Shown: one piece after another, positions 1-20,000 of the stretch
Numbering within the stretch: position 1 is the stretch's first letter
How the letters are laid out: each line of letters begins with the position of its first letter
NCBI GenBank assembly: GCA_008632985.1
Contig: QPGO01000283.1
Span: forward strand, 54,631 to 74,630
Source: Psammoneis japonica
Lineage: Eukaryota
DNA: 20,000 nucleotides
Direction: 5' to 3'
Program-made: the position numbers and the translations under genes
Notes under the pieces: model-generated
The model's input: the letters and a program-made list of their open reading frames with translations, nothing else
Told to the model about the DNA's origin: nothing
Databases searched by the model: none

Positions 1-145
1 GGGAAACAGAGTGCTCCAGCTGGCAGCAGTCACTTGGAAAACACCAATTCCAGGAAAACAACTTCCCATTGAACAGCTTTGAACAGGCATGGACAGAAGA
101 GGAAAAGACATTCCAACACATTGCAAGGTGGATCATTGGCAGGCA

Positions 146-208
146 GATGCTTCTCAAAATGACAAAGCTGTTTCCCAAAGTGACGACCCTGCTTCTCAAA
201 ATAACAAC
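146..208 (+). repeat. Degenerate 21-bp tandem repeat, 3 copies
   Basis: Units gatgcttctcaaaatgacaaa / gctgtttcccaaagtgacgac / cctgcttctcaaaataacaac (DASQNDK-AVSQSDD-PASQNNN in the 89..418 frame). Confidence 0.6.
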
Positions 209-849
209 ACAGCTTTGACACCCAGCACCTTTCCTTTCAGGAAAAATTTACACACTGTGCCACAGACCATGACACAAGTGATGCATTCAACAGAAAACCT
301 GCTGCCGTGCAATTTGTCATCAAGCAACTCAAGCTGCATGGCTTCGCCTTTTTGTTGCAAGATGATTTTGATGATTTCCAAATGGACCAGCTCTTCGTGG
401 AATCTTGGAAGACAATGAAGGCCACACATGGCAAGCATTCTGTCTCCTGCCCCTCACACCAATCTGTCAAATCCCTCAAGTGTCCAATCCTTCTGGACCG
501 GTGCCAAGGCCCACTAAATGAAGAGTTTGAGACTGATGTTGAGAAGTGTGTGGAATGCAGGTTGAGAAAAAATGTTGCAAAGAAGAAGGTTGATTTGCCT
601 CCTCCCTCTTCTGTGAATGTCATGGAGGAAGACACCAACCACCCACACCAGTTTTCTCACCCAATGCACAATTGTTTGGAGAAGCATCATCACAAAAAGC
701 CACAGATGAAGGGCAATGGGCACACCGGATCAACACTTTCCAACATGTCCACACCTTTGCTTCCTTCCTTGAACACATTCTCTGTTGTCATGCGCATTGT
801 CACTGTTCCCACTTGCTTCCCAAGGAAATGCAGACAGACAACAAAGCCC

Positions 850-1895
850 TTGCATTTGGGGCAAAGAGGGTCATGGTGTGCATGGACACAATGATTTATT
901 GTGGCGACTCTGCCATTGACAATGACACAGGGAAAAATCATTCACAGCTTCACACACTGTTAAATTGATTGTTTGTGGGTGAGCCAATGCAAATGTGCAC
1001 GTCAACGGGTGAGAGGCTTTTGAAAACAAAAGCCAAAAAAATGTTAAAGACAGCCCAGAAGCAAGGAGAGGAAACCTTTGTGCACCAAACTTGTGAAAGG
1101 GTGTGTGTGAGTCCATGCTCTTTGATCATCATGTTGACACCCTGGACAGCACAAGCACAGGTGATGCGAGTGATGACATGGACAACTCCTCTGCAATGCT
1201 GGCCACGACCACCACACAAAAGATGCCTCATTTTGTGTTTGAACAGGATCAATTTGACAATGTCCTGTCAATGGATTGTTTTGGAAAGATGCACAAACCA
1301 AACAAAGAATCCGGCAAACCATGCAGGGCTTTCATTAAAGCAGTGCAAGAATTGGAGCCAAACCAGAGTCAATTCGAAACATGGAAGAAAGTGAAGCTCT
1401 CTGATGGGGAACATGTGTGTGCCCATCCACAACACGGCTCCAAGGAGGGCACCTCGTGTGATTGGGCAGCTGTTGACTTTGACATGGACAACGACTCAAA
1501 CGAGACATGCCCAGCGAGAGTTGTTGGCCTTTACAAGGACAATGCAGGCACTGTGAAGGCCGTTGTCCATTCAGCTGATTGCAAGCATGCAAGTCCACCT
1601 GCAGAGACACCAGGCTGTTCATGCATTGCCAACAAGAATTCCAAAGCAACGACAAGCCCTCCATGAGAAACGTTCCTGTCTCATCTGTAGAAAGCGTGGA
1701 TGCCTGTGCTTCCAAATGAAACACCACAAAGACCCAGTCCCACCTCAGATGTTGTCAGCCAACGCAAGGAAAGCACACACCATCATGGCAGTTTGTCCCA
1801 GAGTGGAGTGGGCTGAGACATTTGTCCAATGGACAAGGGAGATGATGATGCAAGAGGCCACCAAGACCAACTCAGCACACAGGTGCAGATTTTAG
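850..1895 (+). pseudogene. Decayed, frameshifted transposase-like C-terminal region (Plavaka/CMC-like DNA transposon, tentative)
   Basis: Fragments in changing frames: KNHSQLHTLLN*LFVGEPMQMCTSTGERLLKTKAKKMLKTAQKQGEETFVHQTCERV and VCAHPQHG...SCDWAAVDFD...CPARVVGLY. With C/H read back as Y they resemble the K.H..LH...FG.P...TG.E..K..AK...TQKR and Y.AHP.Y...YDWA.V.F...YPAR motifs I recall from such transposases. Pattern recognition only; boundaries approximate. Confidence 0.4.
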
Positions 1896-2891
1896 GTGTG
1901 ACAGGAGGCAGCTCCTAAACAACAGTTAAAGAACTGTTGGTCAGAGATGTGGCTGCGCAATTTTGACACAACCATCACAGATTTCCATGCGTCTTGCTCA
2001 TCATGCAGAATGACAAAACCAGGGCACCAATGCATTGTCCAATCAGCATGAATTGACATCAGAATGCCCACCACCCCCCGTTTTGGCAAGGAAATTGTGG
2101 ATTCCTTGGGAACAATCAGTGGCAAGTTGTTGAGAACATCCAGCTGGTTGCAATTTTCAAGATGCTGCCACACCATTTTAAAGTTTCCACACAACAACAG
2201 GCACATGATGAAGTGGGTGTGTTTGCATGTTGGATGCAAATTGCTTCTGTATTGCCTCAATTTGAAATGCTGCTGCAGCTTCCCATCCACCTTTGGTGCA
2301 TCAATGGTGTTGAATGGCCGATGGCTTTGATGGTGCAGTTGTCCATCCTCTCCTTGAAAAAAAAGTCTTTGATGTCCAGCTCCATGTGCCAGCCTTCTGC
2401 TTTCTTGAACAGGTGGGCATTGATGAAGCAGCAGCAGCAAGTCATTGTGGCTTGCATGCTGGGAACATCTCCTCAAATGCATTGCCCCAGGCAATCAGCC
2501 AGGCCAATGCAGTGTCAGCACATTTGTTGGCTTGGACCAATGCAACGGCAATTGATGCAGTTCCCCTTGGTTGGCAAAAGAGTGTCAATTTTATTTTGTG
2601 TCATTCCAAAGTTGCTCAAAAGGCAAATTATGTTCTTTTGCAAAAGTGCCACTTGTCATTCTGCAGCACTTGCCTCACCTCCATCAGCTGTGCAAGTGTG
2701 CAATCCTCAACAGGATTGGGAAACCACAGTGGAAAATCAACACCATCTGACATGGTGATCACGGAACTTTGACTGGGGGAACAGATTTGGGAAAATGAAC
2801 GACAGAAACCCAGCGACACATGTCAACCATTTGCTTGGTCGTGCATTGTTGCTCTGGAATTGTTCGACCAATCCGAGTGAGCAATTGTCAA
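1892..2891 (-). pseudogene. Decayed coding-like sequence of unknown product, interrupted by element A
   Basis: Protein-like fragments in several minus frames (DFPLWFPNPVEDCTLAQLMEVRQVLQNDKWHF; FINAHLFKKAEGWHMELDIKDFFFKERMD; VWQHLENCNQLDVLNNLPLIVPK). No family recognised. Confidence 0.25.
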
Positions 2892-3138
2892 TGACAGAAA
2901 TTGAAAATGACTGGGTGGAAGAAAACAATGACTCCTGACTGCTGTCTAAACAGCAGATGAGTCTACGTGCAGAGACCATCACAGGAGCCGAAAGACTGGT
3001 GTTGTGATGTTGGCACTGCTGTCATTGTTCTTTTGAGCTGAGTGGCTTGAAAGCAATGTGCATCATGCACATCACATGCGGAACTAAGAGGACATGCAAT
3101 TGTGTGTGACAAACTAAAATCTTGTTCAAATCCTGTCA
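2892..3138 (-). repeat. 3' LTR of element A (247 bp)
   Basis: Aligns end to end with 16620-16863; TG...CA termini; preceded on the minus strand by the PPT-position motif and the RNase H end. Confidence 0.92.
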
Positions 3139-3150
3139 CTTCCCAGTTTG
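3139..3150 (-). other. Putative plus-strand priming site (short PPT) of element A, CAAACTGGGAAG
   Basis: Abuts the 3' LTR; same motif in B and C (CAAACTGGGGAG). Confidence 0.6.
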
Positions 3151-6100
3151 ATTGAGGAGTCCACAGCAACAGATTCAAAATTGGATTGATCAAAGGCCTC
3201 GGGATCAAAGTTCCAAAACACAAGAGGATGGAGGAGGTTCCAAACCTGGGAGCAACCCCAGTGTTTGCTGAGGATGTCAGCATGATTGCGGGAACCTTCA
3301 ATGAAGTGGAACTCAAAGAAACCAGAGGCAATTGCCTCATGCACATGATGGAACAAGAGGACAGTGTGTTGCTTGTGTAACTTGGAGTGTGGCATGGGGC
3401 ACTGTCCACAACCAACTTGTTGTCCCCAAACATGCAACAGGTGTCACAGATTGGGACACCAAGGCAATGCAATGCAGTGCACAGATCAATGATCTGTTCA
3501 ATGCTTGTCCTTGCAACAACAAACTCAAATCCATGCATCACAGTCTTGACTGTTGCTGGTTTCTTGGAGAATCAATCAGCCAAGAACTTGTTGAGGAAAT
3601 GAGTGATGCCCGTGACTGAGCATCCGGTGAGCATGCAATGGAGAAAGTTTGCATCAACATGATGGGTTGTGGTGATGAACTTGCCAAGTGGCTTGGGCGC
3701 ATCTTGTGGGAGCAGCTCTTCTGCCTCCCCACACACAGATTGGGCCCAGTTGTGCATGGGCTTGGGGAGGTCCAAACTGTTGGGTTCCTTCATGCACACT
3801 TGGAGGGCACCATGTGGCAATGGACAAGAATCCACACACATGTTTGGCATGGTCCAGGTGGCCTTGATGGGGTGTGGCATGGAAACTGCACAGGGACATT
3901 ACGGCTGCAGCAACATCAATGTGACTGAGGGACACAGCCCATTGCAGGGAACCAATCAGGGATTGGAGTTGGTGGATGCCATCAGCTCTAAGTAATTCAG
4001 AGGTGATGAGCTCAGGGTGGTCTCCCTTCTCAAGAGGGGAAAGCACGCACAGTTGTTGACCATGTGCTCAATGCAATTGCAAGGAGCAAGGCACAGGGTG
4101 CCATTGGAATCATGGGTGAAGTTGCAACCAAGGTGGAACTCCAGTGGTCTAGTGCCCTTGAGCTTGAACTTGCATTTCTCTGTGAGAGTGTCTGCAAAAG
4201 CTTGGGGGTCCTTCATGGCAAAGGCCAGGTCGTCCACATGCACTGCCATGTGTTTGCAGTGGTCACCATCCAGATGTCGGGTTTGGCATGGCATGGGGAG
4301 AAACCTTCTGCATGCAAACAATTGGCAAAGCATTCATGCCACCTGAGGCCAGAGCTGTGGAATCCATGTGACGCCTTGTGGATGAAAAGGATGTGTCCTT
4401 CCAGCTTGCCACATTTGGGGCCTGCCACAATGTGCAGTTTCTCCTTGGTCGTGGCTTCAAGACAGGCATTCCCAATGTCGGTCAACCAAGTCTCTAGTTC
4501 ATTGAGTTTGGCCAGGAAGGTCATCAACCAAAGGCCGCAGAGGGACACTGCTCCAGAGCAGACACTGTCAATGGGTGTGTCTGTGAGGTGTCCATCAGCA
4601 ACAAGTCGTGCTTTGTGCCTTCCATCATGTTTGATGTCACAGACAAGATCCACCCTAATCTTCTTGTGTCCTGCTGGGGCACTGGAGTCCTTGCAGTGTC
4701 TGCAATCATGAAAGACCTCACACTCACCAAGCTGAGTCATCTCAAGGTCCATTGCATCTCCCCACTTGTGGTTGCCATTGCGCTCCTCAAGGGCCAAGGC
4801 ATGCTTGCAATCCTGGGGCACTTCACACCCATGCTTGCATCGTGATGCAGTGCAGAACGAGCACAGCTTGGCTTGGTTGGCTGTGCAGAATGGCTTTTTC
4901 TGGTGCAGAGCCACACTTTGGAAGCATTTTCATCCATCAGTTTTGAGCAAACCATGCTCACATGCATGGATGGCACAAGTGATGGATTGTCTTTGGCAAT
5001 GATGGCAAGAGGTTCCAACGTGATCTTCCCATTCTCCCATTCAAGCATGATGTTGTAGCTTGAGCCTTTCCAGGAGGGGTGATGAGGTCTCAATGGTCCT
5101 TTGTGTGAGACGATGTGTCAGAACTTCCAGAGAGCAGAGTCCTTGTCTTCCTGCTCAATGTGGTGCATGATGTCATTGCAGGCAAGGATTTCCTCACATT
5201 CATCATTGTCAATGGTGCAAATGAATTTGACTGGTTCTGGGTTGTTGCCAATTTCCCAGTCATGGTCTTCAACAGCCTTGATGATGCGGGCTCTGCAGTG
5301 TTGTCCGTCTTCTTGTGGCTTCAAGAGGAAGGTGCATCCAATGATGTCCTCGGGGTCAAAGACCGGCATTTTGGGCATCCTGATCACCTCCACATCTGGT
5401 GAATCTGGTGAATCCTTGGAGTCTTGTTGAGTTTTGATGATGGGTTTGGCAAATTTTTCATCGGGAGGGTCAAGATGCAGGTTGGAAGCAGACGGGTCAT
5501 GGGCGGAATGCACGTTGGAGTGGCAAAGAATCTTCTGAGCATTGTCAGAAAGAATTTTGAACGTCATTTGATGACCCACCGGTTCAGCAATGCCGATGAA
5601 GGGACCACACAACTTGCGGGATTCAGACGGCCAGTCAGAATCATCAAGGTGGTGGCACACAGGTTCCCACGATTAAAAGCGGAGGAGGGGGCTGATGTCG
5701 GGGGTGGATCTGGACAGCACTTTGGTGGGAGCATGCCAGTGAAGCTTGGCAGATGCTGCATGGTCAAGCACAAAGCACATGCACATGAGGGCCACAAGCC
5801 AGGTGCAGGCCGGGGATCCAAGCAATCCATGATGGTGTTGGCCATGTTCTTCACAGTTTGGTGGCAGCGCTCAGCAAAATTCTGGTGTTGTTGGTGGGGC
5901 TGGCTTTGCTGACTGGAGATGAAGAGGGCACGAAGGATGCTGAGAACCTTGTCACTGATCTCAACCTGAGCACGGTCACTGATGAGCTTGGACGGAGCAC
6001 CACGGTTGTGAATGTTGTCTTTGAGCATGTTGATGAATTCCTTGTCAGTCTTGGTGCTGCACACATCCATGATGTTGGATTCCATGCCAAGGAAGAGCTG

Positions 6101-8138
6101 AGTGCTGACACATCTAGAGTCAATGGCAGGGGTGTCAAAGTGCACCACATCAGTGGCAACGGGTTCATTACGTTGGTGGACATTGAGAGCCGGGTTGGGC
6201 AACTTGCATGCCTTTTTCAGGTGCATGCTGATGGGCATGTGAGCATGCTGTGTCATGCAATCAAAAGTCCTGCAAACAGTGTCCTTTGGGAGGAAGCCAT
6301 GGCAGTGGCGGAGGGACTCACAATGGTTGGGATCCTTGGGGTTGATCTCACTCTCATGGCAATCATAGAAAAAATCAGATGTTGGGATGATGTGGTCATC
6401 AAGGATGGAGTTCACAAGCATGGCATTGTGGATGACATGTTGGTGGCGATGGTTGCCAAACTCATCAAAGAGGTTGGTGGTTGGGTTGTCTTTGAGGTCT
6501 GACATGGTGCCATGCCACGTCTCATTGTCTGTGAACTGTTGGTCGAGGATGGATGGGTCCCAGGTGTCATCACCAGTGAGGATGACATCAGGCAGAGTGT
6601 CCCATTCCGCATTGGTGTGCAGTCATGTTGCAATGTGTGGCAGGCTGCCTTTGATGTCAATGGGGATGACGTGCCTGTCAATGGTGGTGATGTGCTGCAG
6701 ACCATTGGGGACCTTGATCGACCGATCGTTGATGTCATGTTTGCACAACTTGAGTTGGCCGCACAAGTGCATGGTCTTGCCCTTTCCAGTGCAGGTGCAC
6801 CAGTGAAGGATGGCAACAATGGGTCCACATTGTGTGTGGATTGCACCACAGGCAGTGACAATGGGAATGTTGACAAGCTGATGGTTGTCCATGTGTCAAC
6901 CTGGTGATCAGTGTGGGTGATGACATGAACATCATCACCAGCGATGCCACAATTTGTGCCAAGATCTATGAGAGCACCCTTGTGAGTTGAGTTGTGTGTT
7001 GAGGCGGAGTCCACAACATTGTGGTCATTGGCACAACGGCAAGTGTGACTGTTGATCTCAATGTTGGTGGCAGCATCACAGGAGAATGTTGATCCAGGGA
7101 GTTTGTCACTAGAGCGGGCCAAGGGTGGCCTGTTGGGTGCAAGGAGATGTTGCAAGTCACTGGGTGACAGAGGCTTGTGCTTGGTGAGGTGCACCAGGAT
7201 GGGGTTAGCATCAGTTGCATCGGCTGCAGTGTCAGGTGGTTTGGGGGCCGACGCAAGATCATGGGCATTGGCAAACAAGTTGACATTGCCATTGCTGCCC
7301 AGATGGAAGGGTCATGCAGGTTCACAGCCATTGAGTCATGGCAGTTGCTGGCACGGGCAGTGCGCAAGCCAAGGATGATGGCCTTGGTGGACTGAGGCAA
7401 GGTGTCCCAGATGCGCTGGTGATCTGGTGGATTGCAATGCCATTGTTCCCTGGTGAGGGAGGAGGCACCACGAGTCTGTGCAACATGAGCCTGGATGACA
7501 TCAATGTCACTGTCAATGTCGAAGAACACATCATCATCAGGGTCATCGGGGGCCAGGTCATGGGCACTGACAGTGTGGCACAGAGTGCATGAGGCCGTCT
7601 TGGGGATGAACGTGCTGTCCTGCTGTGCTGCCATGGAAAGCAGGAGCCCACAACATTGCTCATGTGAAAGGCTTGTGCCATTCAGTGTGCAATGCTGATT
7701 GGCTTGGTTCCACATCTGAATGGAGTTTGTTGCCAGGGTGAATGGCATTCTCATGCATGACACGTTTCTGGCCAGCAGAGAAGCAGTCTGCAGTCAGGAT
7801 CAGAGCTTTGCACTTGCAAAGTTGGTCATGCCAGTGAAGTGTGAAGGCATGGGTGGTGTCTTTCCAGGTGCCATCACCAAGGCGAGCAGTGCTGAGATGT
7901 GCAACAAGGGTCGATGACTCCAGGATGCACAGGCAGATGCAAGGGCACACTTGGACAGTTCACGGTGCACTGCTTGAGCATCAGACATGTTCACAAATGA
8001 GAGCCTTGCCCTTGTCATTTTGCAAGATGTGCTCAAACACAGCAAACATGCATTTCTGTTGTTCAGCAAACAGGGCTTTGTCCTCAGCCACAGAGGGCTT
8101 GCATGTCAGATCAAGGATGCGGTCAATGTCCTGAGAGT

Positions 8139-8143
8139 GGGCC
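8139..8143 (+). repeat. Left target-site duplication of element B (GGGCC)
   Basis: Identical 5-mer at 15252-15256 immediately after the 3' LTR. Confidence 0.95.
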
Positions 8144-8419
8144 TGACAGGATTTGAACAGGATTTAGGTGCGCGCGAAATGTCGCGCGCTGTTTAGTTTA
8201 CCGCGCACAGTTTTGTGTGCTTTGGTTCCGCGCGTTCGCGCGCGATGTAGTTTGCTTTCGAGCCACAAGGCTCACAAGAATAATGACAGTAGCCCGATTA
8301 TACCGACTTACACGTCTTTCGGCTCCTGCAACGGTCTCTGAGCGGAGACTCATCTGCCATGTAGACAGCAGCAAGGAGTTGTTGTTTGAATTCTTGCCAT
8401 TTGCCTTCAATTTCTGTCA
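8144..8419 (+). repeat. 5' LTR of element B (276 bp)
   Basis: TGACAGGATTTGAA...TTCAATTTCTGTCA; 15 substitutions and no indels versus 14976-15251 (manual alignment). Confidence 0.97.
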
Positions 8420-8430
8420 GATTAACAGTC
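8420..8430 (+). other. Putative primer-binding site complementary to a tRNA-Asn(GUU) anticodon arm (GATTAACAGTC)
   Basis: Directly follows the 5' LTR; reverse complement GACTGTTAATC reads as stem GA + loop CT-GTT-AA + stem TC; conserved in A at 16609-16619. Confidence 0.6.
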
Positions 8431-9249
8431 TTGCTCATTGTCAACCCATTGAGCAACCGCCATCGTCGTCGTTGATTTACCGACGACGCTATTTCAATTC
8501 TGCGTGGACCTCCGTGTGTGTTCTACATACATCGGCAAGTTTACGTGCGTTCAACACCAGGCATCGGCAGGAATTTAACGTCACCGTCAAGTCTCCTTAC
8601 CGCTGGATGTCTGGATTGATTGTGCCACCTTTGATCGCTGAAGACATGCATCAACGGTCATATCCAAGTCTATCCTTGATCCTCATCCCTTGACACACCC
8701 ATTCAATGGTTAACGGTCAAGAACCCTACATATTCAAGGATCTTCGTCGCTGAAGACACACATGTGTACATGTCTTCACGGCCAAGGACTTGAACCCACC
8801 CTTTGGACTGCGGCTTTGCCACCACTCTACAAGCACGCCGAGTCTATTGTACCTGATCTACCCCGGACCACTGGTGCTCTACAGTTCTACTAGGTCCACG
8901 AGGACAACTGTGAGAGCAAGCAGCCGTGATTGCAGCCTACGTTGGGGCGAGGGTGTTTTCCCGCGTTTGTTCGTTCGTCCACAGCGCCTAACGCCTACGT
9001 CAACTGGCCAGCCTGATCGGGAAATCCAACCGACATAAAATAAGAACGGTTCGGGGGTCTTGTCCACCTCTAGTCAGCTTACCTGCAGGGGGTTTACAAC
9101 CCGCTACTCCGCTCATAAGCAACCCAAAGCGCCACTGGCTGCGGGTGCGGACGTGCCGGCACAACTCTACGGACCGGATAGGAAGTTTAGCACTTGACAA
9201 CGAACGGGATAGCAAAGCCCAGCGACTTCTGATTTTAAGGTAGTTCAAG

Positions 9250-9304
9250 ATTTCAAGTCAAGTCTATTTCAAGTCAAGTCTATTCTCACCCAAGTTTCAA
9301 GTCT
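9250..9304 (+). repeat. TTTCAAGTCAAGTCT-type tandem repeats in the 5' leader of B
   Basis: 16-bp unit atttcaagtcaagtct x2 (9250-9281) plus caagtttcaagtct; homologous array in A at 15807-15867. Confidence 0.8.
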
Positions 9305-9364
9305 ACCTTCACCACCTTCGCTTCCCAACAAGAATTGCTTGTCCTGACACCACTTTTGTCTGCC

Positions 9365-12300
9365 ATGGTTCTCACTTGTCAGCAACAAACCGATGGTTTC
9401 GAGCACGTTGTTGGAACCGTGCTTGCCCAAGGTGCTGGGAGCCCTCTTCGTTTGGCTTTGACCCAAGACGGCACAGACTCGCACCAAGAACTGTTCACGT
9501 TCATACCGTCCCAAATCGACTCGCTTGAGTACGACAACGGCACTAGTGTGATCCCTTTGCCCCGCAGTTATAAGAACATGTTAGCAGCTCTAATTAGTCT
9601 GTACATTGTCAAAGCACATGAAGGTCTTGACGTTGCCAATGACTCCTCGTTGTTCACGCATGACGAGTTCCTTGCCTGCCGCCTCAGCCCCGACTACATG
9701 TCTTCTGTGTCCGTCGGCAGCTCACCCCTCGCACCTCCGCATGTCACCAACCCGACCAAGGCACGCGACCCGGTACGAGACTTCAAGCGAGGCATCAAAC
9801 GTGACCCCACCGCTTTCACGGCTCTCAAATCCGACAAGCAGTGGCACACTTGGCACACCTCACTTGTGGCACAAGCCCGTGCCCAAGACGTCGAGTGCAT
9901 TCTAGTCTCGTCGTACAAACCGACCAGCCCCGAAGACAAACTGCTCTTTGCTGAACAGCAAAAGTACATGTTTGCCGTCTTCGAACGCATTCTTCTCACC
10001 GACAAGGGCAAGGCTCTCATTCGCGAAAATGTGGGGTCTTCTGATGCCCAGACCGTCTACCGCGCCTTGTCTGAGCATGCGCTCGCCTCCACCCGCGCAT
10101 CCATTGAGTCCTCCACCTTGCTCACGCACCTTGCCACCGCACGTCTTGGTGATGGCACTTGGAAAGGTCCGACCCACGGGTTCATCCTTCATTGGCAGGA
10201 TCAGTTGCGCAAGTGCGAGGCACTCATCCCGGCCAGTGACCACTTCTCTGAAGGACAGAAGCGCGTCATGCTCGAGAATGCCGCACACCCTGTCGAGGAA
10301 CTCCGTGCTGTCAAGAACCAAGCTGATCAGCATCGTACGCAGAGTGGCAAGAGCCTCACATGCGATCAATGCTGTGGCTTGCTCCTCTCCGCGGCGGCTC
10401 AATACGACAGTGCGTTTCAACCCAAGACGACACCTCAAGCTCCCCGACGTGCCACACACACACACGATGTCCACTCCGAGGAACCGTCCGACGATGTGTT
10501 CTACGACATTGACAGCGACATTGACGTCCTTCAGGCTAATGCTGCCTACACCCGTGGTCCCAGCCTCACCGGTGACCAATGGAAACGTCTCCCTCCCGAC
10601 CACCAACGGATTTGGGATTCGTTGCCCCATTTCTCCAAGGCGATCATCCTTGAGCATTCTCGTCCGCCTCCCCGCAACCCGCGAGCCAGCAACTGCCATG
10701 AGTCTGTTATGGCCAACCTTCATGACCAACGCCTTGGGAGTGACGGTGATGTCAACTTGTCCAACACGACTCCTGCTGACTCTGGTGACCCCGCTCCAAA
10801 TGTGGGTGCCACTTTGGATAATCCCATCCTGGCGCACCTCACCAAGCACAAGCCACTGCCACCCGGTGATCTGCAATGTCTGTTGTCTCCTAACCAAGCC
10901 CCCAACGCCAGTCGACCAGGGCCATCCGCCGCTCCCTCTACTCCGCCAGCTCCTGCCGATGACATGGAACTTAACGGCCACACTTGCCGCCGCGTTAACA
11001 ACCACAAATGCTCTGCCTCTGCTCATTGCTCCACACGCACTGGTGCTCTAGTCAATCGTGGGGCCAACAGCGGCATTGCTGGCGACGACGTCCGCGTCAT
11101 TGCACGCACCTCTCGCCAAGTCGACGTTCAGGGCATTGACGACCACCAATTGGTGGACATCCCCATTGTCACCGCTGGTGCCGTCATTGAGACCCAGCGT
11201 GGTCCCGTCATCGCCATCCTCCATCAGCACGCACACACGGGCAAGGGCAAGACCATTCATTCCTGTGGCCAGCTCGAATGGTACAAACAGGATGTCAACG
11301 ATCGCTCTGTCAAGGTGCCCAACGGCTTGCAACGTATTGCCACCCCTGATGGCTATGTCATCCCCATTGACATCAAGGGCGGCCTGCCTTGTGTTGCCAT
11401 GCGACCTTACACTGATGCCGAATGGGACACCCTGCCCCATGTCATCCTCACCGGTGATGACACATGGGATCCTTCCGTCCTCGATCACTCTGTCACTGAC
11501 GATGACCAGTGGTACGACGCGATCTCTGACCCACAGGACGATCCCACTGCCAACCTGTTTGACGAATGCGGCAACTGCCGTCATCGTGTCGTTGTCAACG
11601 AGACCATCATGTCCGCTTCCTTGTCTGCCGATCATGCGTCAGCCCTCGATGATCACCTCATTCCGAACGACGACGTGTTCTGCGCGTGTCATCTACACGC
11701 GGTTGACCCCAAGGACGCCGACGTCCCGCCCCCGGAGCGCACTGTGCAACCCAAGGACCCCCCCTTCGAGTCTCTTCGGCCTAACTTTGGCTTCCTGCCT
11801 GCCGATGCGGTCCGTCGCACTTTTGACTGCACCACGCAGTACGCCCGCATGCCCACCGGTACACACCTCAGGAAGGCCTGCAAATCACCCAACCCCGCCC
11901 TTAATGTGCACCGCCGCAACGAGCCTATCGCCACTGACACAGTTTATGCCGACACCCCGGCCGTCGACTCTGGTTGCACCAGCGCCCAACTGTTTGTTGG
12001 CACCAAGTCTACCGTCACTGACGTCTGCGGCACCAAGACGGACAAGGAGTTTGTCAACACACTTGAGGATCAGATCCATGAGCATGGTGCCCCATCCAAA
12101 CTCACAAGTGACCGTGCTCAAGTTGAGATCAGCAACAAGGTGCTCGGGATTCTACAAGCCCTCTTCATCTCCAGCTGGCAAAGTGAGCCTCACCAGCAAC
12201 ACCAGAACTTTGCCGAGCGTCGACACCAGACCGTGAAGCGCATGGCGAACACTGTCATGGACCGTTTCGGTTCGCCTGCCCACACATGGCTGCTGGTGCT

Positions 12301-15028
12301 CATGTACATGTGCTTCACACTCAACCATGCAGCGTCCCCACGTCTCCACTGGCGCGCGCCCCTCGAGACTCTCACTGGCTCCACCCCGGACATCAGCCCA
12401 TTGCTTCGCTTTCACTGGTGGGAACCCGTGTGCTTCCACCTCGATGACTCCGATTGGCCGTCCGAATCCCGTGAGTTGCGTGGACGCTTTGTTGGCATTG
12501 CTGAGCACGTCGGCCACCAGATGACCTTCAAGATTCTCTCTGACGAGACTCAGAAGATCCTCTGCCGGTCCAACGTACGCTCCGCCACCACCGATCCTGC
12601 CGTTTGAAACCTGCGTCTTGATCCTCCTGATGGGGAGCCACCTGAACCCATCATCAAATCTCGCCATGACAACAACCCCATCGATTCTCCTGATGGGGAG
12701 ATCAGGACACCCAAGATGCCAGTTTTCGATCCGCAAGACATCATTGGACGCACCTTCCTCATGCAGCCACAAGAGAACGGACAACGCCACAGAGCTCACA
12801 TCGTCAAGGCCGTCGAAGACCATGAATGGAAAGTGAACGGCAATCCCGAGCTCACTAAGTTTGTCTGCTCTGTCAACAATGACGAACACGAGGAAGTCCT
12901 TGCCTGCAACGACATCATGAATCACATTGAGCAAGAAGACGAAGACACTGCTGTTTGGAAATTTCGACGCATTGTGTCACACGAAGGACCTCTGAAGCCT
13001 CATGACCCAACCTGGAAAGGCTCAAGCTACAACATCATGCTTGAATGGGAAAGTGGGGAGATCACGTCCGAGCCTCTTGCCATCATCGCCAAGGACGACC
13101 CCGTCACCTGCACCATCTATGCACGAGAGAACGGACTTCTCGACACTGATGGCTGGAAGCGGTTCCGCACCATCGCGAGGCGCCAAAAGAAGCTATTTCG
13201 CATGGCCAACCAAGCCAAGCTTCGCTCCTTCCACACTGCACCTCGCTACAAGTACGGATGCGAAGTTCCCCGGAACTACAAACACGCCATGTCACTAGAC
13301 GAACGCAACGGCAACCGCAAATGGGGAGACGCAACTAACCTCGAGATGGACCAACTCGAGGAATACGAAGTCTTTCATGACTGCGGGCCCTCCGAGTCTT
13401 CCACTCCTCCTGCGGGACACAAGAAGATCCGAGTGCACCCAGTGTACGACGTGAAACACGACGGACGCCACAAGGCACGACTCGTAGCCGATGGGCACCT
13501 CACGGATGTACCTGTCGACAGTGTCCACTCCGGAGTAGTCTCCCTCCGTGGCCTTCGGCTGATGATTTTCCTGGCCGAACTCAACGAGTTAGAGACATGG
13601 GCCACCGACATTGGCAATGCCCACCTTGAAGCCACCACCAAGGAGAAGCTCTACATTGTGGCCGGACCCGAATTTGGCAAACTCGAAGGACACATCCTTG
13701 TCATCCACAAGGCCCTGTATGGACTGCGCAGCTCTGGTCTCCGCTGGCACGAGCGCTTCGCCGACTGCCTGCGAGCTGAAGGATTCTTCCCCTGCCGTGC
13801 CGAACCTGACATTTGGATGTGCAGGAACGGCGACCACTGTGAATACATTGCCGTTTGTGTGGATGACCTCGCCATTGCTGTGAAGGACCCTCAATCTTTC
13901 GTCGACACTCTCACGGAAAAGTACAAGTTCAAGCTCAAGGGCACGGGACCCATTGAGTTCCATCTGGGTTGCGACTTTTCCCGGGATCCCGACGGAACCT
14001 TGTGCCTGTCTCCGCGCAAGTGCATCGAGCGCATGGTTGACAGCTACGCCCGACTGTTTGGGGAGAAACCTGCCACCAATGCCCTGTCACCTCTGGAGAA
14101 GGGTGACCACCCCGAACTGGACACTTCCGAACTGCTGGGGCCCGATGGCATTCACAAGTTCCAGTCTCTTGTTGGTTCACTCCAGTGGGCAGTGTCCCTT
14201 GGCCGAATTGACATCACCACGGCCGTCATGTCACTCTCTAGCTTCCGAGCTGCGCCCCGTCAAGGCCACTTGGACCGTGCCAAACGCGTCTGTGGTTGCC
14301 TCTCCAAGATGCGACACGGCGCTCTCCGCGTTCGTACGGAAGAGCCCGACTGTTCGGATCTCCCTGCTCCGGCCCATGAATGGATGCATTCCGTGTACGG
14401 CAAAGCAGAAGAGATGATCCCGAAGGATGCTCCACCGCCCCTTGGCAAGTTCGTCACTACCACCCACTACGTCGATGCAAACTTGTACCATTGCATGCTC
14501 ACCGGACGCTCTGTCATGGGAATGCTCCACTTCCTCAACAAATTCCCAGCTGATTGGTTCTCTAAGAAGCAAGCTACCGTGGAGACTGCGACCTGCGGGT
14601 CTGAATTTGTTGCCGCAAGGACTTGTGTCGAACAGATTGTCGACCTGTGCATCACCCTGCGCTACCTTGGCGTCCCGATCCGCAATGTCAGTTACATGTT
14701 CGGTGACAACAAGTCGGTTGTAGACAGTGCCACCATCCCGCACTCCAAGTTACACAAGCGACACACCGCACTATCGTTCCACCATGTGCGTGAGGCGATT
14801 GCCTCTGGTTACCTTGAGTTCCACTTCATCGAAGGTTCCCGCAACCCTGCTGACATTCTCAGCAAGCATTGGGGTCACTCCCAAATCTGGGACCTTCTCT
14901 GCCCCCTCATGTTCTGGAACTTCATTCCATCCGAAGTCGAATCTGTTTCTGTGACTCCTCAAGCAAACTGGGGAGTGACAGGATTTGAGTGGGATTTAGG
15001 TGCGCGCGAAATGTCGCGCACTGTTTAG
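9365..15028 (+). pseudogene. gag-pol polyprotein of element B (about 1887 codons, one frame; nonsense at 12605-12607 and mutated catalytic motifs)
   Basis: ORFs 9335..12607 and 12716..15028 are in the same frame. ATG at 9365 (MVLTCQQQTDG) matches A (MVLTRQQQTDG). PR GALVNRGANSG (~11045), IN core ATD...SDRAQVE...QNFAERR (~11930-12230), RT KARLVADG/KALYGL/CVDDL (~13470-13870), RNase H YVDAN/SEF/FGDNKS/NPADILSK (~14465-14865). Confidence 0.95.
14964..14975 (+). other. Putative short PPT of element B (CAAACTGGGGAG), inside the pol frame
   Basis: Abuts the 3' LTR TGACA; identical in C at 17517-17528 (minus strand). Confidence 0.6.
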
Positions 15029-15251
15029 TTTGCCACGCACAGTTTTGTGTGCTTTAGTTCCGCGCGTTCGCGCGCGATGTAGTTTGCTTTCGAGCCACAA
15101 GGCTCACAAGAATAACAACAGTGGCCCGATTATACCGACTTACACGTCTTTCGGCTCCTGCAACAGTCTCTGAGTGGAGACTCATCTGCTGTTTAGACAG
15201 CAGCAAGGAGTTGTTGTTTGAATTCTTGCCATTTGCCTTCAATTTCTGTCA
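14976..15251 (+). repeat. 3' LTR of element B (276 bp)
   Basis: Direct repeat of 8144-8419, followed by TSD GGGCC. Confidence 0.97.
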
Positions 15252-15256
15252 GGGCC
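15252..15256 (+). repeat. Right target-site duplication of element B (GGGCC)
   Basis: Matches 8139-8143. Confidence 0.95.
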
Positions 15257-15755
15257 TGTGCGATGATTGAGGTGTGCCACATGTGCCACTGTTTGTTGGA
15301 CTTAAGAGTTGCGAGTGTGAGTGGGTCATGTTTGATGCCTTGTTTAAAGTCACACATGGGGTCATGTGGTTTTGGGGGCAATGAGCCAGGCATGGGAGCA
15401 GATGGCACGGCACCCATGGAGAGGGATGCTGTGCACTCAGGACTAAGACAACAGTCAGTGAATTCTTCATGTGTGAAAAAGGTGGGATGTCAGCACCTTC
15501 GCACACTTTTGCCATGCACAGACTAATTGACACAGCCATCTGTGCTTTGCAGCCACATGGCAAGGGCGTTTGATTGGCGCCGTTGTTGTTAACTGGGGCA
15601 CAGAGTTGAGTCGGAGTAAAAGTGAAGACATCCTGGCATGAGTCTGTGCTGTCAATGCTGAGGGCTGAGTGCAATGGACTGTCTGTGGCTTGATTCAGAA
15701 CAGTGCCTAAGATGTGCTCAAGGCCATCAGTTTGTTGCTGTCTGGTGAGGACCAT
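15252..15755 (-). pseudogene. gag N-terminus of element A, cut off by insertion of B
   Basis: MVLTRQQQTDGLEHILGTVL... and DFKQGIKHDP...KSNKQWHMWHTSIIAQA align to B gag; one frameshift. Confidence 0.9.
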
Positions 15756-15806
15756 GGTGCAACTGAGTGGGTGCCGGAACTGGAGTTGGAGGGTGAGCTT
15801 AAAACA

Positions 15807-15867
15807 ACTTGAAACTTGACTTGAAACTTGACTTGAAACTTGACTTGAAACTTGACTTGAAAACTTG
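15807..15867 (-). repeat. 12-bp tandem array (CAAGTTTCAAGT)x5 in the 5' leader of A
   Basis: acttgaaacttg x4 perfect plus one copy with an extra A on the + strand. Confidence 0.92.
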
Positions 15868-16608
15868 AACCATCTTACAAATCAGAAGCCGCCAGGCTGT
15901 GACATCCCGTTTGTAGTTAAATGCCAAGCTTCCCATCCGGTCTGCAGAGTTGTGCCGGCACATCTGAACCCATGCTGGCGATGCTTTGGGTTGCCCGAGA
16001 GCAGAGTGATGGGTTAAAAACCACTGCTGACAAGCCAACTAGAGGCAGACAAGACCTCGGAACCTTTGTCATTTTACGTTGGTTGGATAACCCAATCAGG
16101 CGGGCCAAGAAAGGCTCTGTGGAGGGACGAGCAAATGTGGGAAAGGCACCCTCGCCCTAACCCAGACTGCAATCATGGCCACTTCCCCTCACAGTTGTCC
16201 TGGTGGACCTTGTAGAACTGTAGAAGACCAGCAGTCTGGGGTGGATGTGGAGCAATGAACTTGGCGTGCACGCAACAAGGCCAGAGTCGGAGTGCATCGC
16301 ATGTGTGCGTGCGTGCAGAGATCAGTGGAGCCTGAGTGGGACAGGTTGGTCTGTCTGTCAACCTGGGTGGGATCCACTGTGGGAACTCAGAATCTCAGGT
16401 GTTGGAGAGTGTGAGAATTTCTGACAGAATGAATGTCTGTTGAATGGACATGTCCAGCGATTGGACACCTTGAACAGGTCCAAACACACTGATCCTGTCC
16501 AATGTTCATCAATGAGGAAGTTAGGTGCATGCTTCCACCGCCAAAAATGTGCGTCATCAAAAATTTCTTGACAATGATGATGAAGGCTCAATGGATTAAA
16601 ATGAGCAA

Positions 16609-16619
16609 GACTGTCAATC
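16609..16619 (-). other. Putative primer-binding site of element A (GATTGACAGTC)
   Basis: Same position and sequence as in B except one TA>TG change. Confidence 0.55.
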
Positions 16620-16863
16620 TGACAGAAATTGAAGATGACTGGGTGGAAGAAAACAGTGACTCCTTGCTGTCTGAACAGCAGATGAGTCTCTGTGTAGAGA
16701 CCATCACAGGAGCTGAAAGACTGGTGCAGTGACACCGGTGCTGCTGTCATTGTTCTTGTGAGCCAAGTGGCTTGAAAGCAAACTACATCATGCACGTTGC
16801 GCACAGAACCAAGAGAACACACAATTGTGTGTGACAAACTAAAATCTTGATCAAATCCTGTCA
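16620..16863 (-). repeat. 5' LTR of element A (244 bp)
   Basis: Homologous to 2892-3138; followed on the minus strand by the PBS-like motif, leader and gag. Confidence 0.92.
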
Positions 16864-16923
16864 ACCGACATCATTGCACGCAGCTGCATCACCTTCAGTT
16901 CAGTCTTCAAGTTCCCAATTGCA

Positions 16924-16946
16924 GCATGCATGCATGCATGCATGCA
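16924..16946. repeat. (GCAT)5 self-complementary microsatellite
   Basis: gcatgcatgcatgcatgcatgca seen directly. Confidence 0.85.
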
Positions 16947-17199
16947 AAAGGTTATTTTAGTCATGACCTCTGTGACTTTTAAAGGCTGCAACACGTCGCC
17001 GTGATACATTGACTCTTACAAGCAGCTGGACATTGCACTCCTCCCCATGTGTCACGCGACCACACGGCTCTTGCTGACGTGACACGACACTGAACGTGTT
17101 TGGCGGAACAGTGTGGGTGCATACGAAGGAACACACAGAACTTGTGTAGAGTTTTTACGCGTTTGACAGTGTTCAACATTGCTGCAGACAACTCACACT

Positions 17200-17236
17200 C
17201 AGGGTTTCGAACCCCTGGCCTTCTGCCCACTCCGCT
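17200..17236 (-). other. tRNA T-arm / Pol III B-box-like motif next to the end of element C
   Basis: Minus strand AGCGGAGTGGGCAGAAGGCCAGGGGTTCGAAACCCTG contains GTTCGAAAC (B-box consensus GTTCRANNC) inside a CAGGG/CCCTG stem; no complete cloverleaf. Confidence 0.3.
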
Positions 17237-17516
17237 TGACAGAAATTGAAGGCAAATGGCAAGAATTCAAACAACAACTCCTCACTGCTGTCTAAACAGC
17301 AGATGAGTCTCTGCTCAGAGACCGTCACAGGAGCCGAAAGACGTGCAAGTCGGTATAATCGGGCTGCTGTCATTGTTCTTGTGAGCCGAGTAGCTCGAAA
17401 GCAAACTACATCTCGCACGCGCACGCGCGGAACTAAAGAGCACACAAAACTGTGCGCGGTAAACTAAACAGCGCGCGACATTTCGCGCACACCTAAATCC
17501 TGTTCAAATCCTGTCA
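17237..17516 (-). repeat. 3' LTR of element C (280 bp)
   Basis: Reverse complement of the B LTR with two 2-bp insertions; TGACAG...CTGTCA termini. Confidence 0.95.
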
Positions 17517-20000
17517 CTCCCCAGTTTGCTTGAGGAGTCACAGAAACAGATTCGACTTCGGATGGAATGAAGTTCCAAAACATGAGGGGACGGAGAAGGT
17601 CCCAGACTTGGGAGCAACCCCAATGCTTGCTGAGAATGTCAGCAGGGTTGCGGGAGCCTTCGATGATGTGGAACTCAAGGTGGCCAGAGGCAATCGCCTC
17701 ACGCACACGGTGGAGCGATAGTGCGGTGTGTCGCTTGTGTAACTTGGAGTGCGGGATGGTGGCACTGTCCACAACCGACTTGTTGTCACCGAACATGTAA
17801 CTGATGTCACGTGTCGGGACACCGAGGCAACGCAGGGTGATGCGCAGGTCGATGATCTGCTCGACACAAGTCCTTGTGGCAACAAATTCAGACCCGCAGG
17901 TCGCAGTCTCCACGGTGGCTTGCTTCTTAGAGAACCAATCAGCCGGGAATTTGTTGAGGAAGTGGAGCATTCCCATGACAGAGCGTCCGGTGAGCATGCA
18001 ACAATGCAAGTTTGCATCGACGCAGTGGGTGGCAGTGACAAACTTGCCAAGGGGCAGTGGAACGTCCTTCGGGATCATCTCCTCTGCTTTGCCACACACG
18101 GAATGCATCCATTCACAGGTCGGTGCAGGGAGATCCAAACAGTTGGGCTCTTCCGTGCGAACGTGGAGAGCGCCGTGTCGCATCTTGGAGAGGCACCCAC
18201 AGACGCGTTTGGCACGATCCAAGTGGCCTTGACGGGGTGCAGCTCGGAAGCCAGAGAGTGACATGACGGCCGTGGCAATGTCAATTCGACCAAGAGACAC
18301 TGCCCATTGGAGGGAACCAACAAGAGACTGGAACTGTTGAATGCCATCGGGCTCCAGCAGTTCGGAAGTGTCCAGTTCGGGGTGGTCACCCTTTTCCAGA
18401 GGGGGACAGGACGTTGGTGGCAGGTTTCTCCCCAAACAGTCATGTGCAGCTGTCGACCATGTGTTCGATGTGCTTGCGCGGAGACAGACACAAGGTGCCG
18501 TCAGGATCCCGGGAGAAGTCGCAGCCTAGATGGAACTCAATCAGTCCCGCACCCTTGAGCTTGAACTTGTGCTTTTCCGTGAGAGCATTGACGAAAGATT
18601 GAGGATCCTTCATGGCAATGGCGAGGTCATCCACATAAACGGCAACACATTCGCAGTGGTCGCCGTTCCTGCGCATCCAAATGTCGGGTTCGGCGCGGCA
18701 GGGAGAGAAACCTTCAGCTCACAGGCAATCGGCGAAGCGCTCGTGCCAGTGGAGGCCGGAGCTGCGCAGTCCATGCAGGGCCTTGTAGATGACGAGAATG
18801 TGGCCTTTCGAGTTTGCCAAACTCGGGTCCAGCTACAATGTACAGCTTCTCCTTGGTGGTGGCTTCAAGGTGGGCATTGCCAATGTTGGTGGCCCATGTC
18901 TCCAACTCGTTGAGTTCAGCCAGGAAAATCATCAGCCGAAGGCCACGAAGGGACACTGCTCCAGAGTAGACACTGTCGATGGGTACGTCCGTGAGGTGTC
19001 CATCGGCTGCGAGTCGTGCCTTGTGGCGTCCGTCGTGTTTCACGTCGTACACTGGGTGCACTCGGATCTTCTTGTGTCCCGCAGGAGGAGTGGAAGACTC
19101 GGAGGGCCCGCAGTCATGAAAGACTTCGTATTCCTCGAGTTGGTCCATCTCGAGGTTAGTTGCGTCTCCCCATTTGCGGTTGCCGTTGCGTTCGTCTAGT
19201 GACATGGCGTGTTTGTAGTTCCGGGGAACTTCGCATCCGTACTTGCAGCGAGGTGCAGTGTGGAAGGAGCGAAGCTTGGCTTGGTTGGCCATGCGAAATA
19301 GCTTCTTTTGGCGCCTCGCGATGGTGCGGAACCGCTTCCAGCCATCAGTGTCGAGAAGTCCGTTCTCTCGTGCATAGATGGTGCAGGTGACGGGGTCGTC
19401 CTTGGCGATGATGGCAAGAGGCTCGGACGTGATCTCCCCACTTTCCCATTCAAGCATGATGTTGTAGCTTGAGCCTTTCCAGGTTGGGTCATGAGGCTTC
19501 AGAGGTCCTTCGTGTGACACAATGCGTCGAAATTTCCAAACAGCAGTGTCTTCGTCTTCTTGCTCAATGTGATTCATGATGTCGTTGCAGGCAAGGACTT
19601 CCTCGTATTCGTCGTTGTTGACAGAGCAGACAAACTTAGTGAGCTCGGGGTTGCCGTTCACTTTCCAGTTGTGATCTTTGATGGCCTTGACAATGCGAGC
19701 TCTGTGGTGTTGTCTGTCCTCTTGTGGCTGCATGAAGAAGGTGCATCCGATGATGTCTTGCGGATCGAAAACTGGCATCTTGGGTGTCCTGATCTCCCCA
19801 TCAGTTGAATCGACGGGGTCATTGTCATGGCGAGATTTGATGATGGGTTCAGGTGGCTCCCCATCAGGAGGATCAAGACGCAGGTTTCGAACGGAGGGAT
19901 CGGTGGTAGCGGATCGTACATTAGACCGGTGGAGGATCTTCTGAGTGTTGTCAGAAAGAATCTTAAAGGTCATCTGGTGGCCGATGTGTTCAGCAATGCC
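17464..20000 (-). pseudogene. pol of element C (integrase C-terminal region, RT, RNase H), disrupted
   Basis: ORFs 18714..19973, 18440..18676 (YVDDL), 17464..18435; +1 frameshift at 18806-18808, CGA>TGA stop at 18440-18442, +1 frameshift in the G run at 18401-18405. Confidence 0.93.

Follow-up and report, generated by a model that had tools for sequence, protein, structure and literature searches.

What removes TpA from the transposon DNA of a 20,000-bp stretch of Psammoneis japonica (GenBank assembly GCA_008632985.1, contig QPGO01000283.1, positions 54,631 to 74,630 of the forward strand), hereafter called the window? Judged by its sequence, the window is a nest of Ty1/copia long terminal repeat (LTR) retrotransposons in which an old element, A, is split by a younger element, B, with a third element, C, lying alongside. 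In positions 1-8143, TpA was seen 35 times, at an observed-to-expected (O/E) ratio of 0.07, and CpG at a ratio of 0.23, while the ratios for CpA and TpG were 1.97 and 1.76. Values close to one were obtained for AA (1.09), TT (1.11), AT (1.03) and TC (1.03), and the GC content was 0.50. As set out below, TpA was lost rather than gained, the loss was specific to the TpA step, it affected both DNA strands, it took place after integration and it was independent of the decay of CpG. In the explanation that we favour, integrated transposon DNA would undergo a change of TpA to TpG or CpA, that is, A-to-G on either strand of the palindromic step; in young copies the per-site rate of this decay would be several times that of CpG decay, and the classical decay of CpG to TpG or CpA would run alongside as a separate process. 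Taken as a whole, this explanation is probably correct, and the hypermutation of TpA described for Bigelowiella natans (Mettrop et al., 2026, bioRxiv 10.64898/2026.01.13.699255) is probably a process of the same kind.

The depletion of TpA deepened with the age of the copy, from an O/E ratio of 0.38 in B (CpG 0.91) through 0.24 in C to 0.06-0.22 in A (0.06 in 2878-8143, where CpG was at 0.23, and 0.22 in 15252-16980). As a baseline, ratios of 0.51-1.02 were obtained for 47 of 50 metagenome loci encoding relatives of the polymerase of B. Two further loci, in records of bacterial metagenome-assembled genomes, had ratios of 0.48 and 0.61. A search of viral contigs gave no match. An earlier reading of the sequence by eye, the initial annotation, had put the number of TpA steps in the first 2.9 kb at about 16, and 16 were indeed counted in 1-2877. 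Its statement that the old DNA is poor in TpA held, but the tracts at 2892-8143 and 15257-16863, which it had treated as separate pieces, belong to a single element A split by B.

Neither of two well-known processes explains A-to-G at TpA, as had also been argued from the outset. Fungal repeat-induced point mutation (RIP) likewise ruins repeated and mobile DNA by hypermutation through transitions and leaves a footprint in the dinucleotides. It differs in converting CpA to TpA, with a gain of TpA and a fall in GC, whereas in the window TpA is destroyed and it is CpA and TpG that are in excess. Deamination of 5-methylcytosine (5mC) accounts for the CpG part of the pattern, both in the composition of the old DNA and in the loss of Arg codons from A described below, with methylation being read here from its mutational footprint. 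A change of cytosine cannot, however, give A-to-G at TpA, and the two decays were separable in the metagenome loci.

The consequences for the coding sequence were examined by aligning the polymerase of B with 60 outside homologues (P0003-P0062 of 120 listed) and scoring the positions at which at least 80% of the sequences agreed. Of 21 positions with conserved Tyr, 10 still had Tyr in B, 6 in C and 1 in A. The replacements were mainly Cys (6 in B, 10 in C and 11 in A) and His (3, 3 and 6), for totals of 9, 13 and 17 of the 21 positions; the remainder consisted of one Trp and one Phe position per copy and, in A, also one Leu. By comparison, the other conserved residues, Arg excepted, were kept at 341 of 363 positions (94%) in B, 328 of 363 (90%) in C and 292 of 359 (81%) in A, so that the retention of Tyr differed from theirs with Fisher p values of 7e-8, 2e-10 and 4e-13, respectively. 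Conserved Arg was kept at 30 of 33 positions in B, 29 of 33 in C and 6 of 32 in A, with losses to His, Cys, Trp and Gln (in A mostly His and Cys) that are the trace of CpG decay. Codons containing TpA decay several times faster than codons containing CpG in the young copies, and both are near saturation in A.

These changes extended to the catalytic centre. The reverse transcriptase (RT) motif reads YVDD in C (TAT, minus strand, 18635-18637), CVDD in B (TGT, 13856-13858) and HVDD in A (CAT, 4238-4240), and the RNase H motif reads HYVDAN in B, HCVDAN in C and HHVDAN in A. Further pairs of Tyr sites are RKCIE in B against RKHIE in C, and IHKALYG in B against IYKALHG in C. The initial annotation had proposed from such motifs that Tyr codons were changed to Cys or His in the three copies, and every motif and codon that it quoted was found where it had been placed. 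For one pair, TGC in B (12563-12565) and CAC in C (19929-19931), the codons are as described but an ancestral TAC is not implied: the position is not conserved in the relatives (His 6, Leu 4, Tyr 3, Phe 3 and others), and CGC is an equally good ancestor.

Direction and specificity were apparent from comparisons between copies. Among 42 polarised non-synonymous changes between B and C, 12 destroyed TpA (seven A-to-G after T and five T-to-C before A), two created TpA and 14 destroyed CpG. Sorted by the preceding base, the polarised A-to-G changes numbered seven after T, four after C, one after G and none after A. The frequency of differences per site between B and C was 28.2% at TpA (31/110), 13.6% at CpG (55/404), 7.6% at TpG/CpA and 3.3% at other sites (46/1404; TpA against other sites, Fisher p 1.7e-17), and the loss of TpA from B since its divergence from C was estimated at about 40%. 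In A, 7 of the 73 aligned TpA steps of B were kept, 33 had become CA and 15 TG; in the second internal part of A (15257-16585), 8 of 54 were kept, 18 had become TG and 13 CA. The 352 aligned CpG steps of B were kept in 36 cases in A, with 146 changed to TG and 106 to CA. Together with the decay of Tyr and the ratios of TG to CA outcomes given below, these per-site rates bear out the earlier proposal of a second, TpA-specific A:T-to-G:C process that acts on both strands of transposon DNA beside the decay of CpG. No clear preference for the next base was seen at mutated TpA in the B-C pair or in a pair of related metagenome loci, L033 and L036 (0.08-0.13; B-only columns were counted as opportunities, and the absolute rates are unusable). 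GC-biased gene conversion was considered and rejected, AT, AA and TT being undepleted and the loss of CpG being a strong-to-weak change.

The dating of these changes draws on the layout of the elements, which is given here by position and strand.

1..2891, no strand assigned: left flank, low-copy and strongly decayed DNA, probably a DNA-transposon relic (1-2877: TpA O/E 0.08, CpG O/E 0.22)
2892..3138, minus strand: 3' LTR of element A, from self-BLAST and LTR alignment
3139..8143, minus strand: internal part 1 of element A (integrase, RT and RNase H side), 71% identical to B, with the HVDD codon at 4238-4240
8139..8143, no strand assigned: left copy of the target-site duplication of element B, GGGCC, the same 5 bases as at 15252-15256
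8144..8420, plus strand: 5' LTR of element B, 94.6% identical to 14976-15252
9239..15028, plus strand: polyprotein frame of element B in the order gag, protease, integrase, RT, RNase H, with the CVDD codon at 13856-13858
14976..15251, plus strand: 3' LTR of element B, from self-BLAST and LTR alignment
15252..15256, no strand assigned: right copy of the target-site duplication of element B, GGGCC
15257..16585, minus strand: internal part 2 of element A (leader and gag side), which resumes A beyond the insertion of B
16586..16863, minus strand: 5' LTR of element A, with the LTR proper from about 16606
16864..17236, no strand assigned: stretch between A and C, part of another, unidentified repeat (TpA O/E 0.35, CpG O/E 0.74)
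17237..20000, minus strand: element C, with its 3' LTR at 17237-17516 followed by the RNase H and RT side, the YVDD codon at 18635-18637, truncated by the end of the window

The two LTRs of one retrotransposon are copied from one template and are identical at insertion. The LTR pair of B differed at 15 sites, 13 of which lay within three TA<>TG/CA steps, four CG<>TG/CA steps and three TG<>CA double steps. In the LTR pair of A, 39 sites differed, including four TA-type steps, six CG-type steps and six double steps; with the LTRs of B and C as outgroup, CG or TA was found at three of these six doubles. Since LTRs that were identical at insertion now differ at TpA-derived sites, the changes arose in chromosomal DNA after integration. 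Both DNA strands were hit, as the ratio of TA>TG to TA>CA was 15:16 between B and C, 12:13 between L033 and L036 and 15:33 from B to A. A hand count gave no strand-coordinated runs of TG and CA outcomes (13 runs against about 11 expected in C, 5 against about 6 in B).

These results bear directly on RNA editing before integration, in which transcripts would be A-to-I edited by an ADAR- or ADAT-like enzyme and then reverse-transcribed and inserted. The presence of U or T before the edited A suits RNA adenosine deaminases (10.64898/2026.01.13.699255). Such editing predicts A-to-G on the sense strand only, however, whereas on that strand TA>CA was as common as TA>TG, and its changes would be common to both LTRs, whereas differences at TpA sites were found within the LTR pair of a single element. 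The left flank is as depleted of TpA as the elements, and if it is a DNA-transposon relic, as is probable, the process is not special to RNA intermediates. Editing of the transcripts is contradicted by these results, and we regard it as highly improbable.

The relation between TpA decay and CpG decay was resolved in related elements from metagenomes. Of 49 metagenome loci scored at the same Tyr and Arg positions, 46 had at most one change of Tyr to Cys or His. Such changes were numerous in L014 (10 Tyr kept, 6 Cys and 3 His of 19; TpA O/E 0.31), L033 (1 kept, 7 Cys and 7 His of 16; TpA O/E 0.27, CpG O/E 0.80) and L036 (2 kept, 7 Cys and 5 His of 15; TpA O/E 0.13, CpG O/E 0.74). CpG O/E was 0.74-0.80 in these three loci, with 0 or 1 CpG-type Arg loss, and in L033 and L036 no conserved Arg had gone to Cys, His, Gln or Trp. 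The latter two loci are 94.5% identical, and 87 of their 99 differences are transitions, with 25 single TA<>TG/CA changes, 20 TG<>CA doubles and 8 CpG-type changes; per site, they differed at 45.5% of TpA, 5.1% of CpG and 1.5% of other positions. The reverse pattern, CpG-type Arg loss with at most one change of Tyr to Cys or His, was observed in L029, L032 and L046-L049. The loss of TpA without loss of CpG in L033 and L036, and the reverse in the other six loci, indicate that the two are separate processes.

The doubles between L033 and L036 are parallel decay of ancestral TA, and their number fits independent decay. A tandem change of CA to TG in a single event, by a dual A/C deaminase, was rejected as unnecessary, as these 20 doubles and the CG or TA of the outgroup at three of the six doubles in the LTRs of A fit independent decay. 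Outside the metagenome loci, the trace was also found in P0085, a protein from the ENA that represents a further family and in which 6 of the 21 Tyr positions hold Cys and 3 hold His (1 of 145 homologous proteins). L014, L033, L036 and P0085 thus make four public sequences, from three copia families beyond the window, with the signature but no CpG decay. The affected sequences, at most about 70% identical to each other, add up to at least five copia families with the trace, namely B and C of the window, A of the window, L033 and L036, L014, and P0085.

The independence of the two decays also affects the standing of error-prone patch repair, in which T:G mismatches from 5mC deamination would recruit mismatch repair and a polymerase-eta-like activity with WA-to-WG errors. 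Polymerase eta has a preference for WA, and the co-occurrence of CpG and TpA decay in the window is in keeping with such a scheme. The initial annotation had named it as a candidate agent, but it is a poor fit: in the old DNA AA and TT are not depleted while TpA is, no polarised A-to-G followed A, and the loss of TpA is near saturation in L033 and L036 with almost no decay of CpG. We consider patch repair very unlikely.

Systematic consensus errors at methylated motifs do occur in some long-read assemblies, and an artefact of assembly or base calling at modified bases would in principle mimic the signature. Logan contigs of sequencing run X1, which may be the sample from which the window was assembled, matched eight single-copy stretches of the old DNA (1-675, 656-1421, 1403-2441 and another five within A) without a single difference, at a depth of about 35. 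Between the copies, differences at TpA run in both directions, and the same signature is present in four independent metagenome and ENA sequences. The TpA-poor sequence is not a consensus artefact; we judge an artefact to be extremely improbable. The stretch was contained in four sequencing runs, all from one sample and one study, with no RNA run among those listed. The low-coverage run X2, with otherwise little beyond the high-copy family of B and C, provided a contig over 16985-17229. Summed contig depth in X1 was 52,000-128,000 over B, corresponding to about 1,500-3,700 copy-equivalents at a likeness of at least 85%, and 1,300-11,000 over A. Taken over B and C, the summed depth of about 24,000-128,000 against about 35 for single-copy DNA points to a family in the order of 700-3,700 copies; by summed depth the family of B and C is also put at roughly 2,000-3,500 copies.

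The process was put forward in the initial annotation as possibly undescribed, under the name of reverse RIP. It is real but already in print. Integrated nucleocytoplasmic large DNA virus (NCLDV) and virophage DNA in B. natans undergoes hypermutation of TpA to TpG or CpA, according to the main text of the preprint (Mettrop et al., 2026, bioRxiv 10.64898/2026.01.13.699255), which also reports that 231 of 302 new single-nucleotide mutations in mutation-accumulation lines fell within two integrated viral regions. With a single exception these 231 mutations were A>G or T>C, and every A>G or T>C lay at TpA; the effect was limited to some of the lines. Among the coding sequences of B. natans that are poor in TpA, reverse transcriptase and DDE transposase domains were over-represented, and an ADAT2 homologue was proposed as the agent (10.64898/2026.01.13.699255). 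The likeness to the window extends to the A:T-to-G:C change at TpA, the outcome of TpG or CpA by strand, the integrated foreign or mobile DNA as substrate, and the depletion of TpA with gain of CpA and TpG. The difference is that in B. natans the evidence is direct, from mutation-accumulation lines and from viral inserts present in single copy, whereas here it is deduced from a decayed Ty1/copia family of thousands of copies. Moreover, the words copia, LTR and CpG are absent from the main text of the preprint, whereas strong CpG decay accompanies the loss of TpA in the window. Our literature search on TpA-specific hypermutation returned this preprint as the sole relevant paper, with its supplementary tables outside the search, and nothing useful was found in a search on cytosine methylation in B. 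natans.

The process is probably aimed at transposon or foreign chromatin rather than at the whole genome. On the alternative of a genome-wide context-specific bias, TpA would be hypermutable everywhere and old neutral DNA would drift towards TpA poverty, with neither targeting nor defence. The deepening of the depletion with age is expected under both. Within B, the TpA O/E ratio was 0.76 in the leader, which precedes the long ORF (8421-9238), and 0.51-0.59 in the LTRs, as compared to 0.26-0.37 in the coding part, in spite of the estimated loss since the divergence from C. A ratio of 0.76 would be unexpected had the lineage long lived under genome-wide pressure on TpA, which is a hint of targeting if the leader is taken as non-coding. 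Depletion in the low-copy left flank equals that in the repeats, which speaks for a general bias, but the flank is itself probably derived from a transposon. In B. natans, the signature is described as restricted to foreign DNA that has integrated, the remainder of the genome being AT-biased (10.64898/2026.01.13.699255). We consider the genome-wide bias unlikely, though it deserves to be taken seriously.

Several observations nevertheless weigh against the favoured explanation or limit its support. At codon boundaries, where the loss is synonymous and goes beyond Tyr codons, TpA O/E in B was 0.18 against 0.77 in unaffected relatives, albeit with few sites (7 seen, about 15 expected). The loss of Tyr codons was weaker (2.23 per 100 codons in B against 4.56 in the unaffected relatives). 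The loss at codon boundaries is a weak sign that the lineage was already under pressure during its active phase, which a general bias would produce. By self-BLAST, Pfam and the comparison of the flank, non-transposon DNA was not in evidence in the window, which leaves some probability to a genome-wide bias. In the overlap of B and C (12494-15251), 22 TG<>CA double differences were counted, where ancestral TA and CG decaying independently would give about 10. A model as simple as this is thus not complete, and the excess is likely caused by unequal rates among TpA sites, some being much hotter than others. Finally, given its possible role as the source of the assembly, run X1 does not amount to independent support.

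As to the agent, a DNA-acting adenine deaminase of the ADAT2/TadA type that requires T before the target A would be our favoured candidate, tentatively and with somewhat less than even confidence. The tRNA A34 deaminases act on tRNA at U33-A34. TadA, ADAT2/ADAT3 and ADAR share with the proposed agent the conversion of A to I with U or T directly before the target A (for the preference of ADAR, see 10.64898/2026.01.13.699255). They differ in that their known natural substrates are RNA, whereas the change in the window occurred in DNA, after integration and on both strands.

Oxidation of thymine leads to mispairing with G, and an oxidised or otherwise modified thymine at TpA would be a second, somewhat unlikely candidate for the source of the changes. 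A deaminase and a modified base at TpA had both been named as candidate agents in the initial annotation, and both are retained here. Because TpA is palindromic, the sequence alone cannot separate a deaminase from a thymine modification, and a symmetric outcome is explained equally well by a lesion of T or of A. In one specific form, a TET/JBP-type enzyme would oxidise T at TpA in silenced repeats to 5-hydroxymethyluracil (5hmU) or formyluracil, which would pair with G and give T-to-C on either strand. Dinoflagellates offer a parallel, as their 5hmU lies mostly in repeats, is concentrated in transposons, helps to silence them and overlaps 5mC, and a preference for TA and TC had been noted in older work (PMC11572971). 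The available part of that paper describes no mutational footprint, however, and TpC is not depleted in the window. Base-resolution mapping in Breviolum gave no motif, according to the part of the report at hand (PMC11071213). The contigs of X1 add up to about 141 Mb and the single-copy stretches of the window have a depth of about 35 in them, which suggests that the genome is well below the size of 1-250 Gb stated for most dinoflagellates (PMC11453091). We regard a thymine oxidase of this type as unlikely, and a deaminase is favoured over thymine modification.

Targeted DNA hypermutation directed against mobile DNA is, to our knowledge, almost unknown apart from cytosine deaminases and RIP. 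A TpA-specific A:T-to-G:C system has so far been the subject of one report in one species, without an identified enzyme, and the phenomenon is rare and mechanistically open, but no longer undescribed. What the window adds is that the signature ruins LTR retrotransposons, down to the catalytic tyrosine of YVDD, that the action is post-integrational, affects both strands and is separable from CpG decay, and that conserved Tyr changed to Cys or His provides a simple read-out for metagenomes. It is possible, though doubtful, that TpA editing, here in a host other than B. natans, would constitute a chromatin-targeted genome defence across several protist lineages, distinct from and independent of cytosine methylation, with an adenine deaminase that acts on DNA (or a thymine oxidase) as its enzyme and with enough force to destroy a copia family thousands of copies strong, with the five affected families as its first environmental footprint. 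A natural enzyme that edits A at TpA in double-stranded chromosomal DNA would, if real, be of interest for base editing.

The assignment of the substrate to Ty1/copia draws on LTRs that start with TG and end with CA, a 5-bp target-site duplication, an RT of the RVT_2 type and an integrase side placed before the RT side. Element B spans 8144-15251 on the plus strand and has LTRs of 277 bp that are 94.6% identical, flanked by an exact 5-bp duplication. Its open reading frames (ORFs) at 9239-12607 and 12608-15028 make up one frame with one interruption, a TGA at 12605-12607 where C has CGA. The RT, in the second half of this frame, was recognised as RVT_2 (PF07727, E 1.4e-24). Pfam recognised neither the integrase nor the gag of B, and the N-terminal half of the polyprotein (9239-12604, plus strand, 1122 amino acids), scanned in three pieces, gave no Pfam match even at E values up to 1; the coverage of this copia clade by Pfam is poor.

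Element C is 92.9% identical to B (2562/2758) and element A 71% (3703/5207), with 15252-16269 of A matching B at 9878-8833 with 75-76% identity. The LTRs of A, aligned by self-BLAST as 2878-3138 against 16602-16863, are 84.5% identical over 265 bp. An intact target-site duplication of A was not found at its borders (GTCAA at 2887-2891, ACCGA at 16864-16868), and 14 bases outside its 3' LTR resemble bases inside the junction of its 5' LTR. The 12 ORFs of the left flank matched no Pfam family. A segment at 894-1103 (plus strand) was 43% identical over 70 amino acids (E 3e-11 against the 2.9-kb flank) to a stretch of metagenome locus L050 that adjoins an ORF of 1007 amino acids with a Plavaka transposase domain (252-3476, minus strand), the flank-like stretch lying directly behind it. 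On this similarity, the left flank is probably the relic of a DNA transposon. Within the overlap of B and C, positions 12894-13493 of B and approximately 19001-19600 of C showed 2 differences in 600 bp, as compared to 9.0% (194/2158) across the rest. This near-identical tract looks like the product of gene conversion between inverted neighbours, or of homogenisation during assembly.

The decay also has a side effect on annotation. In the six frames of 1-8143 there were 431 TGA against 31 TAA and 22 TAG triplets, and the window contained 31 ORFs of at least 150 amino acids. The in-frame stops in the polymerase regions of B, C and A, aligned in the frame of B, were all TGA, derived from CGA or TGG. 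As decayed copies lose TAA and TAG and retain only TGA as a stop, they come to carry long spurious ORFs in all six frames.

ATA or TAT contexts accounted for 49% of TpA steps in the unaffected relatives, against 26% for B and 14% for the old DNA (136 and 58 sites). These contexts may go first, as a context preference of the process. The TpA steps that survived in the old DNA stood mostly in TTAA, CTAA and GTAA.

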